Positions 9,719-41,642 are shown, counted from the stretch's first letter. The stretch: DNA of 64,000 nt from an uncultured Pseudomonadota bacterium (GCA_963541275.1 CAUTSC010000001.1:329879-393878); one strand, 5' to 3'. The notes: generated by a model not told the origin, from the letters alone. Translations and numbers: made by a program.

Positions 9719-10576
9719 ATGAAAAAACATAAAATAAGTAAATTAGCATTGTTAACAGGATTGTTAATGATAAACACAAACACAAAAGGTTTCTATCAAT
9801 GCGTTCCTAAACAGGATTGGTTTAAGAAACAATATTATATCTTGACATTAGAGGATAAATTTAGAGTTGCTAAAACACAGATAAATAATCATAATCTGTG
9901 GATATTAGTTGAAGAAAATAAAACAAGTGGGAGTTTAGGTATCGGGATATATAAAGTAATAGTTGCAGGTGGGTGTGGAGGTGGTGGTGGAAGTGCAGGG
10001 AAAGATTATGAGGAGTATAATGTGTATTATTATCGTAGTGGTGGTGCTGGAGCAGTAGGGGAAATATCAATGAAACTATTTTATATTGATAGGTTAATGT
10101 CATATGCTGCCTGTATAGGATTAAAGGGTAGAAATGGAAGTGTTGGAGCTGGGGATGGAGGAAGTGGTGGTGGAGGAGGTGCAGGGTCTGCATTTAAAAT
10201 TAATGATTTAGAAATAATGGTTTCTGGAGGAGGTGGTGGAGGAGGTGCTTCTTCTCCTCATGGGGGAGGTGGTGGCGGTGGTGGCGGATATGGATGTGAA
10301 ATAGGAGGAAGAGGAGGATGGGGAAATAATAGTTATGATCATGTAAGTGGAGGAAATATTGTTAGAGATAGATATTTAGGTGGTGCTAAAGGGATAGATG
10401 GAGGAGAAGATTATGGAAACAATGGTGGAAGTGGTGGAAAAGGTGGTAGACCATGTGCAAATGGGGGTGTTGGAGGTACAGATTTGGGAAGTGGAGTAGG
10501 TGGTAATAGTTGTGCTACAAAAGGAAATGGCAATACTGGTGATGGTTATGTTAAAATTTACAAATATATTGGATAA
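9719..10576 (+). CDS. Gly-rich secreted protein, cassette 1 gene B
   Basis: It has a signal peptide and the conserved FYQCVPK..W start. Long GGGGGGG/GGSGG tracts give a local GC spike from GGN codons. The conserved C-terminus is GDGYVKIYKYIG. It is a paralog of 62523..63080. The RBS is AAGGAGGAG. Confidence 0.7.
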   Translation: MKKHKISKLALLTGLLMINTNTKGFYQCVPKQDWFKKQYYILTLEDKFRVAKTQINNHNLWILVEENKTSGSLGIGIYKVIVAGGCGGGGGSAGKDYEEYNVYYYRSGGAGAVGEISMKLFYIDRLMSYAACIGLKGRNGSVGAGDGGSGGGGGAGSAFKINDLEIMVSGGGGGGGASSPHGGGGGGGGGYGCEIGGRGGWGNNSYDHVSGGNIVRDRYLGGAKGIDGGEDYGNNGGSGGKGGRPCANGGVGGTDLGSGVGGNSCATKGNGNTGDGYVKIYKYIG

Positions 10577-12941: not shown

Positions 12942-14621
12942 ATGCGCAAAGGTGTAGTGTTATTTTTAATATCTTTTGGTATTGTGAATAATTGCTATGC
13001 GCTTACTTTTACAGGGGTGAAAAATTCTGTTGAAAATTTTGCCCCTAATATCGCAACAATTGATGATATACAAAAGCAACCTTCAAATGTTGCAATGATT
13101 CCTGATGCACCAATTATTTCACAAACACAGACAGAAAAAAATATTGATGGTGAAAAAGATGTTGCAAAATTGGATACAGATATTTTACCTGTTGAAATTG
13201 AGAAGGAGGAAGAAGATAAAGTTGAAAAAGAGTATGTGAAACCTGTTAAACAAGCAGTTATAAAAGCAGCAGAAAAAAAACTTGTAAAGAAGACAAAAAA
13301 AACTATAAAAAAAAATACAAACGATACGTTTGATAGTTTAAAAGTTGGTGATGGCAAAGAAATTTTGGTATCCATGTCTATTCCAAATAATTACAAGGTA
13401 GATGAAAATAAACAGGAAAAGATTGCAGAAAAAAAAGTTGTAAAAAAATATAAAAAAAGAAAGAAAAATTATAAAAGTGAGAATTTAACCACTTCTATAA
13501 CAGAGCCAATAATTTATGATAAACAGATAATTTTAGCAGATAGTATCAAATCAAAAAAGAATCCTATTTTTCCAATATTAAACAAAGCATTTAAAAAGGA
13601 AGAAAATGATATAGTTGAAAAACCAACGCTTGAACCAGTAGCCCCTGTTATACCAGAGACAAAAACTGCTTTTTCAAATTTTGATTCTGATGAATTGCCA
13701 AAATCTTTGGAACCTTTAGTTGATAAAACCACCCAAAAAAAATTGAAAAAAAATAAAAATATTGAGTATATAAATTATGGGGCAGAAATAAAAAATAATC
13801 CTTTTTTAAAGGCATTTTCTGCATTAAGACCAGAAAAAGTTAATGAAAATAAATTTATTCCAACTATTGCAAGTCCAAGGAAAAAACGTGAAAAAACTAT
13901 TGCTTTTGTTCCATCATCTGTTTTAAAAAATGATTTAAAAAAAACTTATTTATCAGATAACAAATATTTATCCCCAGTTGAATCTGTTGATGGTGATGAT
14001 GTTGCTGTGGAAGATGAGGCGCAAGATGAAAATAAAGAAGAAGATACACCCGAAGCAGCTGACACAGATACAATTTTGGAATTAAAGGATACAGATACAA
14101 ATAATACAGAAAAAAAAGAAGAGGAAAAATCAACAGAAAGTAAAAAGACAGAAGATATTGATATTCAAAAGGTAAAAGAGCAGTTAAAGACTTTAAAAAA
14201 AGAGCAAAATATAACGGGGTCTTTAAAAGTATCTGGTCGTGAAGTGTTGCATATGAAAATAGAATTTGATAAAAAAAGCAGTGCTCTTTCAACAGAAAGT
14301 ATAAATTTACTTCGTTCTTTTGGTCAAATTGTTGTTGATAAGCCGACAAACTCTATTGAAATAAGTCTTCCTATGTCTGTTATGAACAACATTGATAAGA
14401 AAAAATTAACTGCTCGTAGGCTTGCCATAGTTGCCAATGTGTTAAGGAATACTGGAATATCCGATAAACAAATAAATCCAGTGTTAAGTAGTCGTGATGA
14501 AGACAGCTTTGCATTCCGTATTATATCAAATGATAAAATTGTTCAACACAAAGTTGGTGGTGGTAAAGACATAATGGGTGATGAAACGAGCAGTAAAATT
14601 TATGACCTTATGAAATGGTAG
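12942..14621 (+). CDS. K/E-rich secreted low-complexity protein with C-terminal OmpA/MotB-like peptidoglycan-binding-like domain
   Basis: It has a signal peptide and long KK.KK/EEE low-complexity stretches. The C-terminus ...SIEISLPMSVMNNIDKKKLTARRLAIVANVLRNTGISDKQI... resembles an OmpA_C-like domain (LSxRRAxxV..L). Confidence 0.45.
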   Translation: MRKGVVLFLISFGIVNNCYALTFTGVKNSVENFAPNIATIDDIQKQPSNVAMIPDAPIISQTQTEKNIDGEKDVAKLDTDILPVEIEKEEEDKVEKEYVKPVKQAVIKAAEKKLVKKTKKTIKKNTNDTFDSLKVGDGKEILVSMSIPNNYKVDENKQEKIAEKKVVKKYKKRKKNYKSENLTTSITEPIIYDKQIILADSIKSKKNPIFPILNKAFKKEENDIVEKPTLEPVAPVIPETKTAFSNFDSDELPKSLEPLVDKTTQKKLKKNKNIEYINYGAEIKNNPFLKAFSALRPEKVNENKFIPTIASPRKKREKTIAFVPSSVLKNDLKKTYLSDNKYLSPVESVDGDDVAVEDEAQDENKEEDTPEAADTDTILELKDTDTNNTEKKEEEKSTESKKTEDIDIQKVKEQLKTLKKEQNITGSLKVSGREVLHMKIEFDKKSSALSTESINLLRSFGQIVVDKPTNSIEISLPMSVMNNIDKKKLTARRLAIVANVLRNTGISDKQINPVLSSRDEDSFAFRIISNDKIVQHKVGGGKDIMGDETSSKIYDLMKW

Positions 14622-15346
14622 AATTTTTAAAATCTGTTTTAAATTTTATTTTTCCACCAAGTTGTATTATTTGTGATTCCAATCTGTTTTTAAATGATGG
14701 TTTGTGCAGTGATTGTTTGAATGAGTTAAAATTTATAACTAAACCATTTTGTAATTGTTGCGGATATCCATTTGATTTACAAGAATACGAAGTTTTAGAC
14801 AGCTTTTTATGTGCAAAATGTCTTGCAAAACATTATAAATTTGATATGGCAAGATCTGTTCTTTGTTATAATGATATATCAAAAAAAATTATTTTGCCCT
14901 TTAAACATGCTGATAAAACTGGCTATAAAAATTTTATTGCAAAATTAATGATAAATGCAGGGACAGATTTATTAAAAGATACAGATATTATAATCCCAGT
15001 TCCAATACATTTTACAAGGCTTTTAAAACGAAAATACAATCAAGCAACTTTGCTTTCTAATATTATAAGTAAAAAAACAAAAATCCCTATGTACTATGAT
15101 GTTTTATTTAGAATCAAAAAAACAAAATCCCAGGGGCATTTAACGACAAAACAAAGACAAGCAAATGTTTTAAATGCTTTTGTTGTTAAAAATGCTTATA
15201 AAATAAAGGGTAAAAAAATACTACTTATAGATGATGTTTTTACAACTGGTGCAACACTTAATGGATGTGCTAAAATCCTTAAAAAAAATGGAGCAGGAAA
15301 AGTTTATGTGTTAACCTTTGCTCGTGTTGTTCATAGCGTAAAATAA
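14615..15346 (+). CDS. comF: ComF-family competence protein (phosphoribosyltransferase domain)
   Basis: An N-terminal Cys4 zinc finger (CIIC...CSDC...CNCC) and a C-terminal PRTase motif, LLIDDVFTTGATL. Confidence 0.75.
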   Translation: MVEFLKSVLNFIFPPSCIICDSNLFLNDGLCSDCLNELKFITKPFCNCCGYPFDLQEYEVLDSFLCAKCLAKHYKFDMARSVLCYNDISKKIILPFKHADKTGYKNFIAKLMINAGTDLLKDTDIIIPVPIHFTRLLKRKYNQATLLSNIISKKTKIPMYYDVLFRIKKTKSQGHLTTKQRQANVLNAFVVKNAYKIKGKKILLIDDVFTTGATLNGCAKILKKNGAGKVYVLTFARVVHSVK

Positions 15347-15403
15347 TTTTTATTTTTTGATTTTAATATTTAAATTTATATTATAGAGTTTAAAAATGAG
15401 GAA

Positions 15404-15967
15404 TTGGTGATGATAAATTATAATGTGTTTTTTGATATGGATGGAGTTTTGGCTGATTTTGATAAATTTGCAAGAAATGTTGTAAATAATAAAGGCATAA
15501 ATAAACCATCAAAAAATTTAACTGAAGATGAAAAAACTAAAAAAGCTCTATTTTGGACTAAAATTATAACAACCTATCCAAAATGTTGGCTTGATTTTGA
15601 ACTTATTGATGGGATTAAAGAAATAGTTGAGAATTTATCAAAACAAAAAAATATCACACTTTATATTTTGTCATCAATACCCAGTTTGAAACATTGCTTG
15701 TTAAAAAATTTTGATACAGAAAGCTACAGAAATCTTGTAAAAATTTATAAAATAGAATGGCTTAAAAAATATAATTTATTTGGTTATTTTAAAAAAATAT
15801 TTTTGGTTGATAATGATAAAACAAATTATATGATAAGTGGCGAAAAAAATATTTTAATTGATGACCGACCAGCAAATATAAATGATTGGAAATTAAGCAA
15901 GGGGATTGGAATATTATTTCAAACGGCAAACCAGTTGGAAACTGATTTAAAGGAGATAATAATATGA
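15404..15967 (+). CDS. HAD-superfamily 5'(3')-deoxyribonucleotidase-like protein
   Basis: The N-terminal FFDMDGVLADF (HAD motif I, DxDxV) is as in NT5C-type deoxynucleotidases; 187 aa. Confidence 0.55.
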   Translation: MVMINYNVFFDMDGVLADFDKFARNVVNNKGINKPSKNLTEDEKTKKALFWTKIITTYPKCWLDFELIDGIKEIVENLSKQKNITLYILSSIPSLKHCLLKNFDTESYRNLVKIYKIEWLKKYNLFGYFKKIFLVDNDKTNYMISGEKNILIDDRPANINDWKLSKGIGILFQTANQLETDLKEIII

Positions 15968-16593
15968 TTAAAAATTTTGAACAAAAAAGACCGCAAGATT
16001 TAATAACAGCATTAAAACAAACTACACTTCTTGGTGATGAAAATATATATCCTTATGAAAATGCAATAATATCATTAAAGACTTTTAATTATAAAGATAT
16101 ATCACCAGTTCAATTTTATTATCTGCTTAACAATGTATTATTGTTAAAAAATTTAAAAAGTGATTTTAAAAATCATAATATTGATATCTTAAATCTTGAT
16201 GGTTATGTAAATTTTGAAGTGGATAACTATGATAAAAAATTAACTATGAGCCCACCAATTATTGAAAATGTGGATGGACAAAATTTACTGGTTGATGGTA
16301 TGCACAGGGTAGTTTTATCAATGATGCTTGGCAAAAATATAAAATGTGCATACATAGAAAATATTAAACCAGAACATTATACTTATGCTGTTTCTAATCC
16401 AAATGGATGGAGAGATGTAAAGTTATTTAGAGAAGAAATTCCAGAAAATTTTAAAACAAGAAACAGCAGATATGATGGAAATTACAGATATTATCGCAGA
16501 ATGTATAATTTTGAGGGTAAGATACAAATTCCACGCGAACATACATTAAAAACAGATTCTTATTTCAGGGAAATGATGTCAAAACAAAGATAA
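15964..16593 (+). CDS. ParB/sulfiredoxin-like nuclease-domain protein (hypothetical)
   Basis: It overlaps the upstream gene by 4 nt (ATGA). The motif LLVDGMHRVVLSMMLG matches the ParB/Srx DGxHR signature. It has a basic/aromatic C-terminus. Confidence 0.45.
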   Translation: MIKNFEQKRPQDLITALKQTTLLGDENIYPYENAIISLKTFNYKDISPVQFYYLLNNVLLLKNLKSDFKNHNIDILNLDGYVNFEVDNYDKKLTMSPPIIENVDGQNLLVDGMHRVVLSMMLGKNIKCAYIENIKPEHYTYAVSNPNGWRDVKLFREEIPENFKTRNSRYDGNYRYYRRMYNFEGKIQIPREHTLKTDSYFREMMSKQR

Positions 16594-16600
16594 CAATGAT

Positions 16601-17089
16601 TTAGATATTTGTTTTTGTTTTACGCTTATTTTTAAAAAAATCTTTTAACATTTTGCTTGCTTGTTTTTCAAGGTATCCACAGGAATATGTTGGTTTATAC
16701 AGATTTTTTTGCTTGTCATATAATTGTATTCCGTTTATAACTGCGCCTCCCTTTATATCACTTGCCCCAAAATAAATGTTTTTTATTTTTGCAAATGATA
16801 TTGCTGTGGCACACAAAGGACAAGGTTCAAGCGTGATAAAAATACTTGTATCAAATAAATATTTTTCTTTTGTTTTTTTTAATGCTTTGTTAATTGCAAT
16901 TATTTCAGCATGTTTTAATGGATTTTGTTTTTTTTCAATCTGATTATATCCTTTTGCAATAATATTTTTATTTTTATCAATTATCACTGCTCCAACTGGG
17001 ACTTCATCATTTTTTAATGCTTTTTTTGCCTCATTTATGGCAAGCTTCATAAAATAATCTATCTCTTTTTGTGATAAGTTTGTATCCAT
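16601..17089 (-). CDS. tadA: tRNA-specific adenosine deaminase
   Basis: HAEIIAI and PCPLCATA zinc-binding CDA motifs; 162 aa. Confidence 0.85.
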   Translation of the reverse strand: MDTNLSQKEIDYFMKLAINEAKKALKNDEVPVGAVIIDKNKNIIAKGYNQIEKKQNPLKHAEIIAINKALKKTKEKYLFDTSIFITLEPCPLCATAISFAKIKNIYFGASDIKGGAVINGIQLYDKQKNLYKPTYSCGYLEKQASKMLKDFFKNKRKTKTNI

Positions 17090-21508: not shown

Positions 21509-22573
21509 CTATTGTTTATATTGTTTTATGAAATCTTGTCGCAAGTTATCTATTGTCATTTTTTTATCTGTATTTAAATGCCAATATTTCCATCCATTGC
21601 AAGTTGGTGTTTTTTGTAAATGTGCGCCAACTTTGTGTATTGAACCTTGAAAATTATTTGTTTTAAGACTGCCATCTGCAAGTATTATTGCGGTGTTGCC
21701 TTTATCATCTGTTAATGTTTCGCCAACCTTTAAAATACCGCATTCAATTAAATTTCCAAACGGAACACGAATTTGTTTTTGTTTTGTTGTGATTTCTGTT
21801 GTTGTTTGTTTTGTTATATTTTTAATTCGTTCAGTTGCATATTTTATATAAGTTTCATCTTGTTCTATGCCTATGAAATTTCTGTTTAATTTTTTTGCAA
21901 CTGCCCCTGTTGTTCCGGTTCCAAAAAATGGATCTAAAATTACATCATTTTCTTTTGTGGAAGATAAAATTACTCTGTAAAGTAAATGTTCTGGTTTTTG
22001 TGTTGAATGAACTTTTTCACCCAGATCATTTTTTAATCTTTCAGCTTTTGGACATATTGGCATATTCCAATCGGATCTCATTTGTAAGTCATCATTTAAT
22101 GCTTTCATTGCTTCATAATTAAAAAGATATTTTGAAGTTTGATTTTTTGATGCCCATATAAGAGTTTCGTGTGCATTAGTAAAACGTGTCCCCTTGAAAT
22201 TTGGCATGGGGTTATCTTTTATCCATATAATATCATTTAATATCCAAAAACCAAGATTTTGTAAAATTGAACCAACACGAAAAATATTATGATAAGAACC
22301 TATGATCCAGATTGTTGCGTTATCTTTCATTATGCGGTGAATTTCTTTTAGCCAGTTATAAGTAAAATCATCATAATCACTGAAAGATTTGAATTTATCC
22401 CAAGTGTCATTTACTCCATTTACAACAGAATCATCTGGTCTTGATAATCTGTTATTTAATTGTAGATTGTATGGAGGATCGGCAAATACCATGTCAACCG
22501 ATTTGTCTGGTATTGATTTTAGCTTTTCAATACAATCTCCTGCAATAATTGTGTTTAATTTTAATTTGTCCAT
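21509..22573 (-). CDS. ccrM: CcrM-type N6-adenine DNA methyltransferase (GANTC)
   Basis: The N-terminus ...IAGDCIEKLKSIPDKSVDMVFADPPYNLQL... carries the DPPY motif. A C-terminal non-catalytic extension is present as in CcrM. This is an alphaproteobacterial hallmark. Confidence 0.8.
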   Translation of the reverse strand: MDKLKLNTIIAGDCIEKLKSIPDKSVDMVFADPPYNLQLNNRLSRPDDSVVNGVNDTWDKFKSFSDYDDFTYNWLKEIHRIMKDNATIWIIGSYHNIFRVGSILQNLGFWILNDIIWIKDNPMPNFKGTRFTNAHETLIWASKNQTSKYLFNYEAMKALNDDLQMRSDWNMPICPKAERLKNDLGEKVHSTQKPEHLLYRVILSSTKENDVILDPFFGTGTTGAVAKKLNRNFIGIEQDETYIKYATERIKNITKQTTTEITTKQKQIRVPFGNLIECGILKVGETLTDDKGNTAIILADGSLKTNNFQGSIHKVGAHLQKTPTCNGWKYWHLNTDKKMTIDNLRQDFIKQYKQ

Positions 22574-34798: not shown

Positions 34799-36979
34799 AT
34801 GTTTGATAGATTTTGTAAAATAATTTTTGTTTTAAGTTTGATTTTTACAAATTCCGTATTTGCCAAAAAAACAAAAAGGCAGATAAGAAAAGAAAAATTT
34901 ATTTATCCTATGCCTGTTGATGCAGAATGTTATAGCGAAATAGATTATTGTTTTAACAGATATTGTTTTGATAAAAAAACTTTGACTGATGGTGTTTATT
35001 CAAAATGTTCTGCTGTGTCTCCTGCAAATATTTTAATAAATGTAGAGGAATGTTTGAAAACCAGATCTGTTGTTAAAGAGTTGGATTTAACAAAAGGTTG
35101 TAAAAAAGTTTCTTATAATAGAGTTTTAACTTTGCTTGAAAATAAGGATAAGATGGAAAAAGGTTTGAAAAAAAATTCTGCCAGTTGTCAATATGCAACA
35201 AATATGTTGCAATCCGCAAAAAAATGTTATGCTGCAATGATAAGTTCAGATGGATCTTTTTCACGAGATTTGTATGATAAATTGAATAATTTATGTGGTG
35301 AGCACATAAGTGGTGAACCAGATATGGTAAAGCGCTTTTTTAATGCTGGTGATTATGGTTTATCGGATCTTGATATGGTAGATGCTTTACGAGCATCAGG
35401 TCAAAATACGGTGAAAAGAGAAAATTGGCGTCAGGTTGTTGATGCAACTTTGGCAGGATATACAGAAATTGCAGAGTTGTCATGTGGAGAAGAAGATTAT
35501 CAAATAACAAAAGTGAATGATTATTTACTAGATAGCAGGAATAATTTGACAATGATAAAAATGAAAGAAGAAGCAAAACAAATAGGTAAAAAATTGGGGG
35601 ATAAGTTTGTGGACAGGATGTATCCGGGACAAACATGTAAATCACAACCTTTGCCAGAAAACGCTTTGATGTGGTATTATAGTCCAAATTCAAATCCAAG
35701 TTGTAGAATAGTTTGTAAAGAGGGTTATGTTGTTTCAAAATCTTTTACAAAATGTGTTGAACCAGTGGATAGTGAACCAGTATTTAATGGAATAAATTTA
35801 GGTTATGGTAAGTCAAAAATTAGTGGTAGTGTTGTAGCATTTCCAGGTGGGGGAGGTGGTGCTAGTGGAAGCGAAAATGTTGATGTAAGTAAAAATGGTG
35901 ATAAAAATACTGGGGCACCAGAAAAGTCAGATATCTCTGTAAGATGTAGGAATAACAAGAATCCTGTACGTTTAAAATATTCTGATACTAAAAAAGATAT
36001 TTGTGCTTTATTTTTCCCAAATAGTGTTGCAAATGGTAAGGAATATGAAAGATGTAGTGATGCACCAGAAAGATTTTATATAGATGGGAAATGGTATGAT
36101 ATGACTATAGCTAAGTTAAATAAAACTTTTGATCAAAATTTTGAAATTATGGGGGATAAATATGCTTCCAATATGTCAAAATATTTAAAGGATAATTGTG
36201 AAAAAATTTTGAAAGAGGACGATCCACAAGAAGGAGGAGAAACTGAAGCTTCAGGAAAAGATGGATGTATAACCGTTAAAAAATTTAAAGCATTGTTTGA
36301 TATGTTGGATAAAAGTTATAAAAATGAATTTATAGATGCAGAGTATAAGTTTAAAACAATGTTTAATTTGAATAATGTAAATGATTTGCAAAAAGGTATT
36401 GGTTCATTTAATATTTATAATCCAAAATATATTGATCAAATATATTTTATGCAGAATTTAGTAAAGAAGTATATACAAAGTTTTACAGAATTAAAAAATA
36501 AAAATATTTGTGATAAAACGTCTAAAAAAGTTGCTCAAATTTATAAACAATTGGATGAATTTTTATCTTATTTAAATAATCAAAATTATAAAATTAATTA
36601 TAGCAGATGTAATGTAGTATCTTTGAGATTTTTAAAACAAAATTTAGAAAATTTATTGGATAATAAATTAAATATATTAAAAGGTTGGAAGTCGGAATTA
36701 AAAGGAGATGGTGGTTTATTATATTATGAAAAATCAGATAAACTTTTTGATAATGATGAGAGATATTGTGCTGTTGGTAAATGTATTGAAGTTATAAATA
36801 TGAATCTTAATAGTGTTTGTTTTGAACGTTGTAATGGAAAAGTTTGGTTTGGAAATGATATGTTATCAAAATATTTTTCACAAGAGGATAGTAATGGAAG
36901 GAGATATTTACAAAAAGAAAAAGTTCAAAAAGATATTGATTTTTTACAATGTGTGTTGAATAGAGCAGGTGTTAATTGA
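34799..36979 (+). CDS. secreted hypothetical protein, paralog family member 2 (726 aa, Cys-rich)
   Basis: It has a signal peptide. The N-terminal 250 aa are paralogous to the 30747 ORF. It carries a long extra C-terminal region with a poly-Gly linker (PGGGGGASGSEN). Confidence 0.6.
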   Translation: MFDRFCKIIFVLSLIFTNSVFAKKTKRQIRKEKFIYPMPVDAECYSEIDYCFNRYCFDKKTLTDGVYSKCSAVSPANILINVEECLKTRSVVKELDLTKGCKKVSYNRVLTLLENKDKMEKGLKKNSASCQYATNMLQSAKKCYAAMISSDGSFSRDLYDKLNNLCGEHISGEPDMVKRFFNAGDYGLSDLDMVDALRASGQNTVKRENWRQVVDATLAGYTEIAELSCGEEDYQITKVNDYLLDSRNNLTMIKMKEEAKQIGKKLGDKFVDRMYPGQTCKSQPLPENALMWYYSPNSNPSCRIVCKEGYVVSKSFTKCVEPVDSEPVFNGINLGYGKSKISGSVVAFPGGGGGASGSENVDVSKNGDKNTGAPEKSDISVRCRNNKNPVRLKYSDTKKDICALFFPNSVANGKEYERCSDAPERFYIDGKWYDMTIAKLNKTFDQNFEIMGDKYASNMSKYLKDNCEKILKEDDPQEGGETEASGKDGCITVKKFKALFDMLDKSYKNEFIDAEYKFKTMFNLNNVNDLQKGIGSFNIYNPKYIDQIYFMQNLVKKYIQSFTELKNKNICDKTSKKVAQIYKQLDEFLSYLNNQNYKINYSRCNVVSLRFLKQNLENLLDNKLNILKGWKSELKGDGGLLYYEKSDKLFDNDERYCAVGKCIEVINMNLNSVCFERCNGKVWFGNDMLSKYFSQEDSNGRRYLQKEKVQKDIDFLQCVLNRAGVN

Positions 36980-37959: not shown

Positions 37960-38503
37960 ATGACAGATAATAAAATTGAAAAAGATGATATAAAAAAATA
38001 TCTTGATTTAACAGAGCAAGTTGCAAAAAATTCAAAAGATCCGTCAACACAGGTGGGGGGCAGTGATAGTTGATAAGTTGGGTAATGAAATATCAAGAGG
38101 TTGTAATAATTTTGTTGCTGGTGGGGATGAAAAATTTATGACTTGGAATTTAAGACCTATGAAATATAGTTTGGTAGTACATGCGGAAATGTCAGCAATA
38201 ATATCTGCAAAGCAAGATTTAACAGATTGTTCTATTTATACTTTGTATGCTCCATGTTCCAATTGTTTAAAACATATATTGCAAGCTGGTATAACAAAAA
38301 TATTTTATAAAAATTTGTTAGTGAATAGTCAAGCTATTATGAAATCTGATGAAAAAGAAGCTATTGCAAGATTGATCCTTTCAAAACCTGGGGTTATTTG
38401 TAAAAATTGTAATGGTGATGATTGGATAAATGAGTTAGGTATACTTGAAGACACATATATAAGCAACTCTGTAAAGAAATGTGTTTTACAAAAACAAAAA
38501 TAA
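37960..38503 (+). pseudogene. dCMP deaminase (ComEB-like) interrupted by a +1 frameshift in a G6 tract at 38055-38060
   Basis: From the ATG at 37960, frame A gives MTDNKIEKDDIKKYLDLTEQVAKNSKDPSTQVGGSDS* (stop at 38071). Frame B (38021 onward) continues ...GAVIVDKLGNE...HAEMSAI...PCSNCLKHI. Removing one G restores a single 181-aa ORF. Confidence 0.6.
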
Positions 38504-38936: not shown

Positions 38937-39230
38937 AGTGGGGATAGTTGAAGAACTGCTGTATATTATAGGTATATATAGAGGAAAGTCTGGACACCTC
39001 AAGAGAAAGATAACGGATAACGTCCGTCTGTAGTAATACGAGGATTAGAGCCACAGAGACGAGTCTGGAAACAGAGTGAAACGGGCAATCTCTATCTGGT
39101 GCAAGACTAAATAGAAGGGTGTTGAGTGCTCTTGTGAACCCTTGGGTGAGTCGCATGAAATATGTAGTAATATATATTCAAGATAAATAGTTCTTTTTAA
39201 CAGAATCCAGCTTACAGACTATCCCTTGTA
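38937..39230 (+). ncRNA. rnpB: RNase P RNA (reduced type A)
   Basis: P4 5' strand is GAGGAAAGTCTGGAC and P4 3' strand is ACAGAATCCAGCTTA, with a compensatory CTGG/CCAG change versus the consensus CCGG/CCGG. P1 pairs GGGATAGT (38941) with ACTATCCC (39218). Internal ...ACAGAGTGAAACGGGCAAT... and GGTGCAAGACTAAATAGAAGGGTG blocks match conserved regions. It lies in a gap with no ORF. Confidence 0.7.
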
Positions 39231-39908: not shown

Positions 39909-41642
39909 TTATTCAACTCTTACAGCAGGTGGTCTTACACAATAAACACAAGTTAGTTTTTTATTAAATAACATCCATGAAGTATTCGATGGACAACATC
40001 TTTCTTTTGCTCCATTTATTGATGCAAGTGGTGGCAATTTATTATTGCACCATTTTGTATAACATTGACCATCAATTAAAACTTGGTATTCTGTGGAACA
40101 ACCTTTTGGAAAACATTTTCCCATATTTGTTTGGCTGCAATTACCAATAGTGATATTTGTTATATCCATTCCACAAGAATGCTTTTGTCTTTCAGATGTT
40201 ATTTTGCAAGCATTGTTATAAGAATTGGAATCACAATTAAAACAATTCCATACTCTGGTCGTTTTATTATATGAAAGTCCCCAATTATTTTCATTAAAAG
40301 TTCCTCCCTTGATTTTATCAATTTGTTCAGGAGTACAATTTGAAAAACAACTTTCTATTTTTTTATCATTTTTCTTTTTGTCTTTATCACCTATCAATTC
40401 ATCTATAAGAGTAGAATTCAGATCTTTAAATTCTGGATAAGGTTTGCATTGCCATTTTTTATCTTTAAATTCTGTTGTTTCACAAACAGAACAATTTTCA
40501 ATTGCGTTGGAATTTTTTTTGTATGCAAGTTCGCATATTGGTTTATTCATTGATGCTTGTCCACTTTTTACAATTTCTCCATCTGTTTCTTTATCTATAT
40601 TCTTAACACCTAAATATCTATAGTCGCCTTGGCTTTTCTTCTTACATTCTTCTATATATTTTTCTTTATTGTGTACGCAATAAAATTTATTTGATTTATA
40701 TTTTGGGAACCAAGCATCTGTAATTGACAGCTCTGTAAAAATATTCTTGCCCTTGTCATCATTAAAAATCATAAATCCATTTTTATTTTGGCAAAATTCT
40801 GTTCCATCAGAGCAAGTATAAAATCTTGTTTGTGAGTTCCAAACCGTTTTTTGTGGAGCGGTACAACCAATAGAAACAGATTCTTTTGCACAGCAATATT
40901 TATACTCGGAGATCTTGGTACAATTTTCTTTACCTTTTGCTTCACTTGCTGTGTATTCATTTTCGTGGTTGGTACAAGGTTTTACATTAGAAGCGTTAAC
41001 ACATTTAAAAGTATTATCCGCTTGTTTTAAAGCATATTCACCTTCTTTACACTTATAAAGAGTATTTATGTTTGAAAGTTCTTGTTGTTTTATACAAGAA
41101 ACAAGACCTATTCCTATTACTTGTTCTTTATCATTTGCTGGTGTTGGTTTATTATCTGGCATAATAACATATTTACCATCTGCTTTATTTTCATTATCTT
41201 TTAATATAAACAGACCTTTTTGTAAGATCTGGGATGTAAGATACATATCTTTTTTATTTAAAATTTTCCAAGTGGTAGTTGAAAGACAATGTTCACTAAC
41301 ATCTGGTGAAATTTGATCATTTTGTTTACATTCAACATTATCACCTGCAGTATTTATACAATATTTTTTTATGGATATATTTTCATCACCTTGGCAAGAA
41401 AAAGATTTATTATTTGTGATGATTGCTTTTAAATCTTCTTGATATTCATATGCTGTACTATTAGCAAGAGATGTTCTGTCGTTTGTGAATGCTTTTTCAT
41501 GAAATTGTTTTATACAATTTATATTTGCATTTAACAATAATTCTTGTTTATCAAGCTTTGTATTGCTGTCTGTTCTTTTTGAAACAAAATATTGATAAGA
41601 TGCAAGCATCAAACCCATTATAAGTATAATAAAAATATTCAC
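39909..41642 (-). CDS. large Cys-rich secreted/surface protein (hypothetical; about 50 Cys in 577 aa)
   Basis: An N-terminal signal/anchor, MNIFIILIMGLMLASYQYF, and no recognisable enzymatic motif. Confidence 0.45.
   Translation of the reverse strand: MNIFIILIMGLMLASYQYFVSKRTDSNTKLDKQELLLNANINCIKQFHEKAFTNDRTSLANSTAYEYQEDLKAIITNNKSFSCQGDENISIKKYCINTAGDNVECKQNDQISPDVSEHCLSTTTWKILNKKDMYLTSQILQKGLFILKDNENKADGKYVIMPDNKPTPANDKEQVIGIGLVSCIKQQELSNINTLYKCKEGEYALKQADNTFKCVNASNVKPCTNHENEYTASEAKGKENCTKISEYKYCCAKESVSIGCTAPQKTVWNSQTRFYTCSDGTEFCQNKNGFMIFNDDKGKNIFTELSITDAWFPKYKSNKFYCVHNKEKYIEECKKKSQGDYRYLGVKNIDKETDGEIVKSGQASMNKPICELAYKKNSNAIENCSVCETTEFKDKKWQCKPYPEFKDLNSTLIDELIGDKDKKKNDKKIESCFSNCTPEQIDKIKGGTFNENNWGLSYNKTTRVWNCFNCDSNSYNNACKITSERQKHSCGMDITNITIGNCSQTNMGKCFPKGCSTEYQVLIDGQCYTKWCNNKLPPLASINGAKERCCPSNTSWMLFNKKLTCVYCVRPPAVRVE

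Follow-up and report, generated by a model that had tools for sequence, protein, structure and literature searches.

A described system similar in layout to the gene pair reported here is the PUA-Calcineurin-CE-HAD anti-phage system (PUA-Cal-HAD; bioRxiv 2026, PMC12871103), in which a HAD phosphatase takes deoxynucleoside triphosphates (dNTPs) to diphosphates (dNDPs), an effector takes dNDPs to monophosphates (dNMPs), and MazG is able to replace the effector. The same preprint gives "CE" as "conflict effector," a term traced to Nicastro et al. 2023, and ParB folds, to which the second protein of our pair belongs, bind CTP, ATP, or GTP (PMC12704722). The pair lies in a 64,000-nucleotide (nt) stretch of DNA from an uncultured Pseudomonadota bacterium (GCA_963541275.1 CAUTSC010000001.1:329879-393878; the whole stretch is here called the window) and consists of a gene for a predicted NT5C-type 5'(3')-deoxyribonucleotidase of the HAD type and, overlapping its end, a gene for a stand-alone ParB/Srx-fold protein of the family Pfam PF24392 (here called ParB-CE). 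Although it stands directly behind comF, we consider the pair to be, probably, a deoxynucleotide-pool module unrelated to that gene.

Two further bodies of knowledge bear on this locus. T4 gp56 (a dCTPase-dUTPase), the MazG-like human enzyme DCTPP1, and Dut feed dCMP deaminase or thymidylate synthase by taking the triphosphates down to dCMP or dUMP. In an Aravind-laboratory survey that appeared in NAR in 2023, Nicastro, Burroughs, Iyer, and Aravind are said to have proposed ParB versions as nucleotide-degrading immune effectors.

RESULTS

A HAD/ParB-CE gene pair recurs across phyla

The HAD and ParB-CE genes of the window are translationally coupled: the stop codon of the first overlaps the start codon of the second in an ATGA at 15964-15967, with an AAGGAG 8 nt upstream. 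(Coordinates refer to the window unless preceded by one of the labels L001 to L101, which denote the comparison loci of this analysis.) A preliminary description of this DNA had named three open reading frames (ORFs), for ComF, the HAD protein, and the ParB-like protein, together with their motifs and the ATGA overlap, and translation and direct reading of the sequence place all of these where it put them.

The ParB-CE family comprises 650 relatives among 1.84 billion cluster representatives and is patchily distributed, with at least 315 confirmed matches among 185,579 species genomes. An NT5C-type HAD gene is paired with ParB-CE in four separate lineages, represented by the window with L001 and L097, by L005-L007, by L008, L010, and L101, and by L044 (Levybacteria). 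In the last three of these, HADs that are 29-36% identical to that of the window directly adjoin ParB-CE in divergent orientation, 57-68 bp apart, and the surroundings differ, with cspA-like (cold-shock) and lysS genes nearby in L005-L007 and a position between rpsK and rpoA in L008, L010, and L101. The Levybacteria partner (L044:4739-5926, minus strand) is a 395-aa fusion of a thymidylate-kinase-like domain to an NT5C deoxynucleotidase, again divergent from ParB-CE, with a gene for a 5'-3' exonuclease downstream of the latter. The ParB-CEs of these lineages, the window's included, form one clade in the ParB-CE tree. More generally, clades in this tree share locus architecture and follow taxonomy as read from record titles, which, together with the conserved synteny, suggests vertical inheritance and not the mobility of a defense island. 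When a second, unrelated HAD family is included (see below), the adjacency of HAD and ParB-CE recurs across phyla, in tandem or divergent arrangement.

ParB-CE neighbors enzymes of thymidylate synthesis

To describe gene neighborhoods, 80 of the at least 315 genome loci were annotated with hidden Markov models from their own neighbor clusters, and partners were counted on the same strand within 3 kb. A ComEB-like dCMP deaminase lies near ParB-CE in 57 of the 80 loci, a 228-aa HAD_2-type hydrolase in 49 (usually directly upstream of ParB-CE and often overlapping it), a methanogen-type thymidylate synthase in 39, and glyA in 16. The synthase is a 495-aa protein that scores 114 bits against TIGR03283 (cut-off of 174.55) and has MtrA-like pterin-binding (DUF4346) domains at both ends. 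The order glyA, deaminase, HAD, ParB-CE, wecB, followed by apparent ATP-synthase genes, is found in 14 of the 16 glyA loci, which are of the Peptococcaceae type. The block of deaminase, HAD, ParB-CE, and thymidylate synthase spans the Armatimonadota, Peptococcaceae, Thermodesulfobacteriota, Nitrospirota, and Actinomycetota (e.g., L011:4870-8050 and L022:3098-9389), and the whole block, ordered HAD, ParB-CE, deaminase, and synthase, is also present on a 287-kb viral contig (L096). Complete genomes with the block include CP026657.1, OW818698.1, and that of Conexibacter sp. CPCC 206217, and cultured carriers of a pair include Desulfofundulus thermobenzoicus DSM 14055 and Desulfocucumis palustris NAW-5. 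Two AT-rich, phage-like contigs, the only loci recovered by a metagenome scan for close relatives, carry ParB-CE followed by a stand-alone ThyA-like gene.

Five loci carry a Dcd-like dCTP deaminase, and none of the five has a dCMP deaminase. In four, from Nitrospirota and Bacillota (L033:2998-6337, L039:4704-8066, L056:4388-6600, and L087:4529-8049), the Dcd-like gene occupies the slot of the dCMP deaminase, and in the fifth, from Magnetococcales (L085:5728-7240), it lies directly downstream of ParB-CE. This exchange of Dcd for ComEB looks like non-orthologous displacement. ParB-CE is thus persistently associated with enzymes that convert deoxycytidine nucleotides to deoxyuridine and deoxythymidine nucleotides.

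In the window itself, the pair stands alone, and its HAD is of the NT5C type. A ComEB-like deaminase encoded 21 kb away, which scores 36.6 bits against the NCBIfam ComEB model, well under the cut-off, is a possible pathway partner of the pair. Our literature search returned no account of the deaminase/HAD/ParB-CE/thymidylate synthase block or of DUF4346; Nicastro et al. 2023 lay outside that search, and an earlier computational description is possible.

The HAD protein is a predicted deoxyribonucleotidase

The HAD product matches Pfam NT5C (PF06941) at 28.7 bits, against a gathering cut-off of 24.8, and the PHROG 5'-3' deoxyribonucleotidase at 2.6e-13. Searching the PDB with the single sequence gave no match, and a family profile was required; the profile retrieves only 5'(3')-deoxyribonucleotidases (human mdN and cdN and a bacterial putative deoxyribonucleotidase) and one designed protein, with E values of 1e-11 to 1e-9. 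Residues D9, M10, D11, G12, V13, K114, D151, and D152 are invariant across 52 HAD homologs, and the motif II Ser/Thr is present, so that all HAD catalytic motifs are kept. We classify the protein as a predicted NT5C-type 5'(3')-deoxyribonucleotidase, in keeping with the nucleotidase subfamily to which the preliminary description had assigned it.

With mammalian cdN and mdN (NT5C/NT5M) and their bacterial and phage homologs, the window HAD shares the DMDGVLAD signature, all HAD motifs, and the profile matches to the corresponding structures. It differs from them in being only about 25-35% identical to other bacterial and phage members and in being paired and translationally coupled with a ParB-fold protein, and its dNMP phosphatase activity is a prediction only. 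Since two NT5C homologs (in L098 and in the phage-like L100) have no ParB-CE nearby, the association with ParB-CE is not universal for this HAD family.

Fold and conserved residues of ParB-CE

The 209-aa product of the second gene matches Pfam PF24392, the "ParB CE domain," at 91.1 bits (E value of 9e-26; cut-off of 23), with residues 12-152 aligned to positions 1-146 of the 147 in the profile. The relatives listed by protein searches all carry PF24392, and one of them bears the UniRef name "ParB-like catalytic effector." Modeled with AlphaFold2 (AF2) on a 98-sequence alignment, the protein reaches a predicted local distance difference test score (pLDDT) of 89.3, compared with only 36 on a 6-sequence alignment. 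When the model is searched against the PDB with Foldseek, almost all matches are ParB/Srx-fold proteins (Noc, ParB-CDP, SerK, SbnI, sulfiredoxin, and Atu1540), and most named matches in the BFVD viral library are likewise of the ParB/Srx type. These matches are modest, covering about 100-150 alignment columns with probabilities of up to 0.99-1.0, E values of about 1e-4 to 1e-2, and template modeling scores of about 0.3. The ParB-CE family profile has no match among PDB sequences, and hhalign against human sulfiredoxin returned a probability of 0.6%; as no sequence-level link to solved structures was detected, it is Pfam and the fold that place the protein in the ParB/Srx superfamily. The preliminary description had called a ComF phosphoribosyltransferase (PRTase), a HAD of the NT5C type, and a ParB/Srx fold bearing DGxHR; all three calls are borne out by Pfam, profile, and fold searches, well past what chance would give, and the ParB-like motif in particular by PF24392 and Foldseek.

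The 98-sequence alignment contains 17 invariant positions, including P97, E101, D111-G112-M113-H114-R115, Y141, W149, R169, R175, and R191, and the DGMHR motif sits at a strand-to-helix junction of the model. The C-terminal tail (residues 153-209, about 55 aa), which lies outside the Pfam model, is rich in Arg and aromatic residues and carries the invariant R169, R175, and R191 along with further positions of high conservation. The pLDDT drops in this tail, from 76 down to 54, and a role as a lid or in binding a partner is conceivable. The identified ParB-CE fusions (with DUF6273 and with an EF-Ts-N-like tail) are uninformative on function, and a CYTH triphosphatase domain, guessed in one long fusion (P0164), was rejected for want of Pfam support.

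With SerK, SbnI, sulfiredoxin, ParB, and Noc, ParB-CE shares a core fold of about 100 residues and a phosphate-binding GxxR-type motif at a strand-helix junction, but it has no detectable sequence similarity to any of them, and about half of it is specific to its own family. It differs further from the canonical CTP switches ParB, Noc, and KorB in having no helix-turn-helix (HTH), no C-terminal dimerization domain, and no parA neighbor, and in having DGMHR in place of GERRxRA; a Pfam scan of the 209-aa protein found no PF02195, HTH, or other DNA-binding domain.

comF is a neighbor and not part of the unit

The comF product combines a double zinc ribbon (Pfam DZR_2, 51 bits) with a type I PRTase domain (Pribosyltran, 33 bits) and contains the phosphoribosyl pyrophosphate (PRPP)-binding loop ILLIDDVFTTGAT, features that it has in common with ComF, ComFC, and GntX. 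It differs from these in falling below the NCBIfam trusted cut-offs (109.9 bits against 233.55 for TIGR00201 and 111.5 against 304 for GntX; the alignments run end to end, and the genome is very AT rich) and in having no functional tie to the pair outside the window's lineage.

The order of a 558-aa gene, comF, HAD, and ParB-CE is retained in the close relative L097, whose HAD is 80% identical. Among the roughly 100 other loci, neither phmmer with the window ComF nor a search for the PRPP-loop motif found a comF-like gene near ParB-CE; the sole PRTase-like matches are two generic phage PRTases (L091 and L092), which lie 2.5-4 kb away on the opposite strand and lack the ComF zinc ribbons. The adjacency of comF is therefore confined to the narrow lineage of the window, and comF is not part of the conserved unit. 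The co-occurrence that the preliminary description had proposed to look for in other genomes is found for HAD and ParB-CE, whereas comF is absent beyond this lineage; its remark that the genes do not make up a standard competence operon holds.

The spacing of the genes points the same way. The comF gene shares its first 7 nt with the 559-aa gene before it, and its distance to the HAD gene is 57 nt if the latter starts at TTG 15404, as had been described, or 63 nt from ATG 15410; the ATG is the likelier start, as the closest homologs (73-94% identical) are 185 aa long and an exact 185-aa product is on record. The 7-nt overlap, the gap of 57-63 nt, and the ATGA overlap thus divide the genes into two tightly coupled sides, the upstream gene with comF and HAD with ParB-CE. 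A promoter and terminator scan of this AT-rich DNA (about 27% GC) found 34 sites against 32 expected, which is no enrichment.

Locus layout and other genes

The features of the locus are collected in Table 1. The deaminase gene convergent with ParB-CE (16601-17089) was considered as a dCMP-deaminase partner and rejected, as its best match is NCBIfam TadA at 117.6 bits (below the 150-bit cut-off).

TABLE 1 Window coordinates of the comF/HAD/ParB-CE locus and of two deaminase genes
Feature	Position	Strand	Details
comF-family gene	14615-15346	+	243 aa; neighbor, outside the conserved module
comF-HAD intergenic spacer	15347-15409	+	A single weak promoter-like match (15357-15384); HAD start preceded by AGGA
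HAD NT5C-type 5'(3')-deoxyribonucleotidase-like gene	15410-15967	+	185 aa from ATG 15410; alternative ORF start TTG 15404
HAD motif I, DMDGVLADF (nucleophile Asp, Asp+2)	15434-15460	+	Translation
HAD motif IV, DDRPA (D151, D152)	15860-15874	+	Translation; invariant in family alignment
Translational coupling signal (AAGGAG ribosome-binding site, then ATGA overlap)	15950-15967	+	Direct sequence reading
ParB-CE gene, stand-alone ParB/Srx-fold protein with family-specific conserved C-terminal tail	15964-16593	+	209 aa; Pfam PF24392, AF2 model, Foldseek
Core ParB/Srx motif region, PPIIE...DGMHR (PPIIENVDGQNLLVDGMHR)	16252-16308	+	Translation; invariant columns in alignment
tadA (tRNA adenosine deaminase), probably an incidental neighbor	16601-17089	-	Convergent with ParB-CE, 7 bp between stops
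ComEB-like cytidine/dCMP deaminase	38021-38503	+	21 kb from the pair; Pfam dCMP_cyt_deam_1, 61 bits

The 559-aa product of the gene that overlaps comF (12942-14621, plus strand) is rich in Lys and Glu, has a signal-like segment at its N terminus, and weakly resembles OmpA at its C terminus; the genes are arranged in the same way in L097. An Rfam scan of the window returned only RNase P RNA and three tRNAs. The bacterial class A RNase P RNA (38940-39230, plus strand; 207 bits), with the ComEB-like deaminase gene just upstream, is matched end to end and is compact, at 291 nt against the 367 positions of the model. Further along the window are a 285-aa protein with a signal-peptide-like N terminus and long stretches rich in Gly (such as GGGGGS) but no Pfam match (9719-10576, plus strand), in a region where local GC rises to 0.43 and GC skew reaches up to 0.73; two large, Cys-rich, apparently secreted proteins of 726 and 577 aa, also with no Pfam match (34799-36979, plus strand, and 39909-41642, minus strand); and a DNA methyltransferase (21509-22573, minus strand) with an N6_N4_Mtase and RAMA architecture, of the CcrM type. 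Taken with the rpsK-rpoA order of genes in related loci, this enzyme hints at an alphaproteobacterial origin of the AT-rich DNA.

In two of the large viral contigs (L093:4989-6415 and L094:5010-6004), ParB-CE is directly followed by a DprA-like nucleotide-binding protein of the YspA/SLOG family and then by clamp-loader-like genes, and the same SLOG protein lies near ParB-CE in L091 (2850-3200). The terminase large subunit of L091 (6628-9108) has 826 aa, compared with 489 aa in the related L092 (6126-7595); its extra segment falls within Walker A and includes a LAGLIDADG-like motif, so that it resembles an intein carrying a homing endonuclease.

DISCUSSION

The pair of HAD and ParB-CE is a sensor-less variant of the theme "HAD plus nucleotide phosphoesterase," in which the partner has a ParB fold and the HAD belongs to another subfamily, and both of its families, NT5C and ParB-CE, were already catalogued. 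Like PUA-Cal-HAD, it is a two-gene layout of HAD phosphatase and nucleotide phosphoesterase, here with the HAD directly upstream of and overlapping ParB-CE. It differs in having no PUA sensor, in an effector of ParB and not calcineurin fold, in a HAD of the NT5C subfamily, in a context that is not one of defense, and in that no filament or trigger is known for it.

Our best explanation as a whole, to which we give an even chance, is that HAD and ParB-CE form a sensor-less pyrimidine deoxynucleotide module at the dUMP/dTMP node, in which ParB-CE dephosphorylates alongside the HAD. The more specific element, that ParB-CE is a phosphohydrolase, is tentative and falls somewhat short of that. The module would work as follows.

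(i) The ParB/Srx pocket of ParB-CE, with PPxxE...DGxHR and the conserved Arg, Tyr, and Trp residues, would bind the di- or triphosphate of a pyrimidine (deoxy)nucleoside.

(ii) ParB-CE would then remove phosphate, taking dCTP to dCMP ahead of dCMP deaminase or, where a dCTP deaminase is present, dUTP to dUMP after it.

(iii) The HAD would carry out an adjacent dephosphorylation, which could be the NTP-to-NDP step of PUA-Cal-HAD or, in the window with its NT5C type, the conversion of dNMP to deoxynucleoside.

(iv) The net effect would be to lower dC and dU triphosphates and to feed or vent the dUMP/dTMP pool, favoring dT over dC in a genome of about 27% GC.

The likeness to T4 gp56, DCTPP1, and Dut that this scheme implies is proposed from gene neighborhood as a functional analogy only, the folds of those enzymes being unrelated to that of ParB-CE.

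Several points weigh against this explanation. The literature that we searched holds no biochemical data on any ParB-CE. ParB and Noc are slow-switch hydrolases, and the true enzymes of the fold (SerK, SbnI, and Srx) are phosphotransferases. NT5C enzymes are dNMP phosphatases, and the NTP-to-NDP step of PUA-Cal-HAD is for that reason not simply transferable to the window HAD. Some Dcd enzymes combine dCTP deaminase and dUTPase activities, and if those at the ParB-CE loci do so too, the Dcd swap need not imply a dUTPase role for ParB-CE. In 12 of the 80 loci, some of them on truncated contigs, ParB-CE has none of these partners nearby, and about 31 of the 80 lack an adjacent HAD; the family is patchy, and its Pfam name points to immune effectors. 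Finally, the evidence comes from the loci around ParB-CE.

That phosphotransferases are the proven enzymes of the fold raises the alternative, which we regard as unlikely, that ParB-CE is a small-molecule kinase (e.g., a deoxynucleoside or dNMP kinase acting on ATP/ADP), forming a substrate cycle with the HAD or controlling entry to or exit from the route from deoxycytidine through dCMP and dUMP to dTMP. Two such enzymes, SerK (5x0k/5x0b) and SbnI (5uje), rank among the closest structures and reach the top identities, 16-19%, and the motif of ParB-CE is the (D/G)GxHR of Srx and not the GERR of ParB. Moreover, mammalian NT5C and deoxynucleoside kinases form substrate cycles that regulate dNTPs, and neighboring dCMP deaminase and thymidylate synthase genes would suit a kinase as well. 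The swap of Dcd for ComEB fits a kinase poorly, however, because Dcd acts on the triphosphate; in Levybacteria the NT5C partner is already fused to a P-loop Tmk-like kinase, which makes a second kinase less necessary; and a kinase tightly co-translated with a phosphatase for the same substrate would be futile.

It is rather improbable that ParB-CE is a non-catalytic nucleotide sensor or activator that reads a (d)NTP level and switches the adjacent HAD or deaminase. The 17 invariant polar, aromatic, Pro, and Gly positions, held across very divergent members and including E101 and DGMHR, are more typical of a catalytic site, and the partner varies (HAD, deaminase, thymidylate synthase, or none), so that no single regulated target is evident. 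Still, the translational coupling of HAD and ParB-CE suggests a complex, dCTP and dTTP are the classical regulators of dCMP deaminases, and ParB and Noc are themselves switches. A phage ParB-fold protein is the obligatory activator of a 5-methylpyrimidine dioxygenase, and mutations affecting its NTP binding or hydrolysis do not abolish activation (PMC13229309); in one survey, 17 of 28 ParB-fold proteins bound no NTP (PMC12704722).

An anti-phage role, in which ParB-CE would act as a "conflict effector" and bring about the collapse of dNTP pools upon infection, is suggested by the name of the family and by its origin in the Aravind-laboratory survey, which reportedly dealt with nucleotide-targeting immune effectors. 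The architecture of HAD plus effector parallels PUA-Cal-HAD, cytidine-deaminase defense has been reported, and the family is patchily distributed and also found on phages. We nevertheless hold this to be improbable. PADLOC matches neither the HAD nor the ParB-CE protein, and no sensor, toxin-antitoxin, or regulator partner is found in the window or in the related loci examined. The surroundings are those of housekeeping genes (glyA...wecB-atp, rpsK...rpoA, and comF...tadA-secA), glyA and thymidylate synthase in the same operon are a metabolic signature, and the grouping of tree clades by architecture and taxon suggests vertical descent. The window protein is a clear member of PF24392, but whereas the original description of that family was reportedly of an immune-system effector, this protein and most sampled relatives stand alone, without a sensor, in housekeeping-like pyrimidine-metabolism operons. 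The suggestion in the preliminary description of a small defense or DNA-modification module inserted behind comF is accordingly not sustained.

Nor do the data favor its other suggestion, a functional link to comF in which the pair works with ComF in salvaging or processing nucleotides from the strand degraded during transformation, and we think this very unlikely. The shared order of comF, HAD, and ParB-CE in L097 speaks for it, although conserved order says little at 80% identity, as do phage loci with competence-related domains by ParB-CE, namely, the adjacent DprA-like SLOG protein (L093 and L094) and the generic PRTases of L091 and L092, although the latter are not ComF-like in domains or orientation. 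Set against these are the roughly 100 loci that have no comF near ParB-CE and the coupling of comF to its upstream gene and not to the HAD.

Least credible of all, to the point of being nearly negligible, is that ParB-CE is a ParB-like DNA nuclease or a DndB/DpdB-like accessory of DNA modification: its fold and DGxHR-like motif are common to proteins annotated as "ParB-like nuclease," but it has no DNA-binding module, its family is catalogued as targeting nucleotides and not DNA, its partners act on free nucleotides, and, unlike Dnd and Dpd modules, it has no dndACDE, dpd, or modification-enzyme gene within 10 kb in the window or among the recurrent neighbors of the 80 loci, and no dnd, dpd, methyltransferase, or restriction neighbors in the window clade or those loci.

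If the pair is indeed such a pyrimidine deoxynucleotide module, two consequences for annotation follow: "ParB-like nuclease" is the wrong label for PF24392 genes such as the window ParB-CE, and the adjacency of comF is not to be read as a sign of competence function. The boldest form of the proposed module, in which ParB-CE would give the ParB/Srx fold its first metabolic hydrolase, converting dCTP or dUTP to dCMP or dUMP and, with a dedicated HAD, supplying or venting the dUMP/dTMP node, we consider on balance unlikely. If true, it would reveal an unrecognized route into thymidylate synthesis, a counterpart of Dcd plus Dut or of DCTPP1 plus dCMP deaminase, in Armatimonadota, Peptococcaceae, Thermodesulfobacteriota, Nitrospirota, some bacteria of the candidate phyla radiation, AT-rich gut bacteria including this one, and some large phages. 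The ParB/Srx fold would gain a chemistry new to it, the ill-defined step that supplies dCMP or dUMP to dCMP-deaminase-dependent dTMP synthesis could be identified, and a catalogued "conflict effector" domain would prove to be, in the majority of cases, an enzyme of core metabolism. The case would also illustrate how immune effectors that deplete nucleotides can arise from housekeeping enzymes that balance nucleotide pools.

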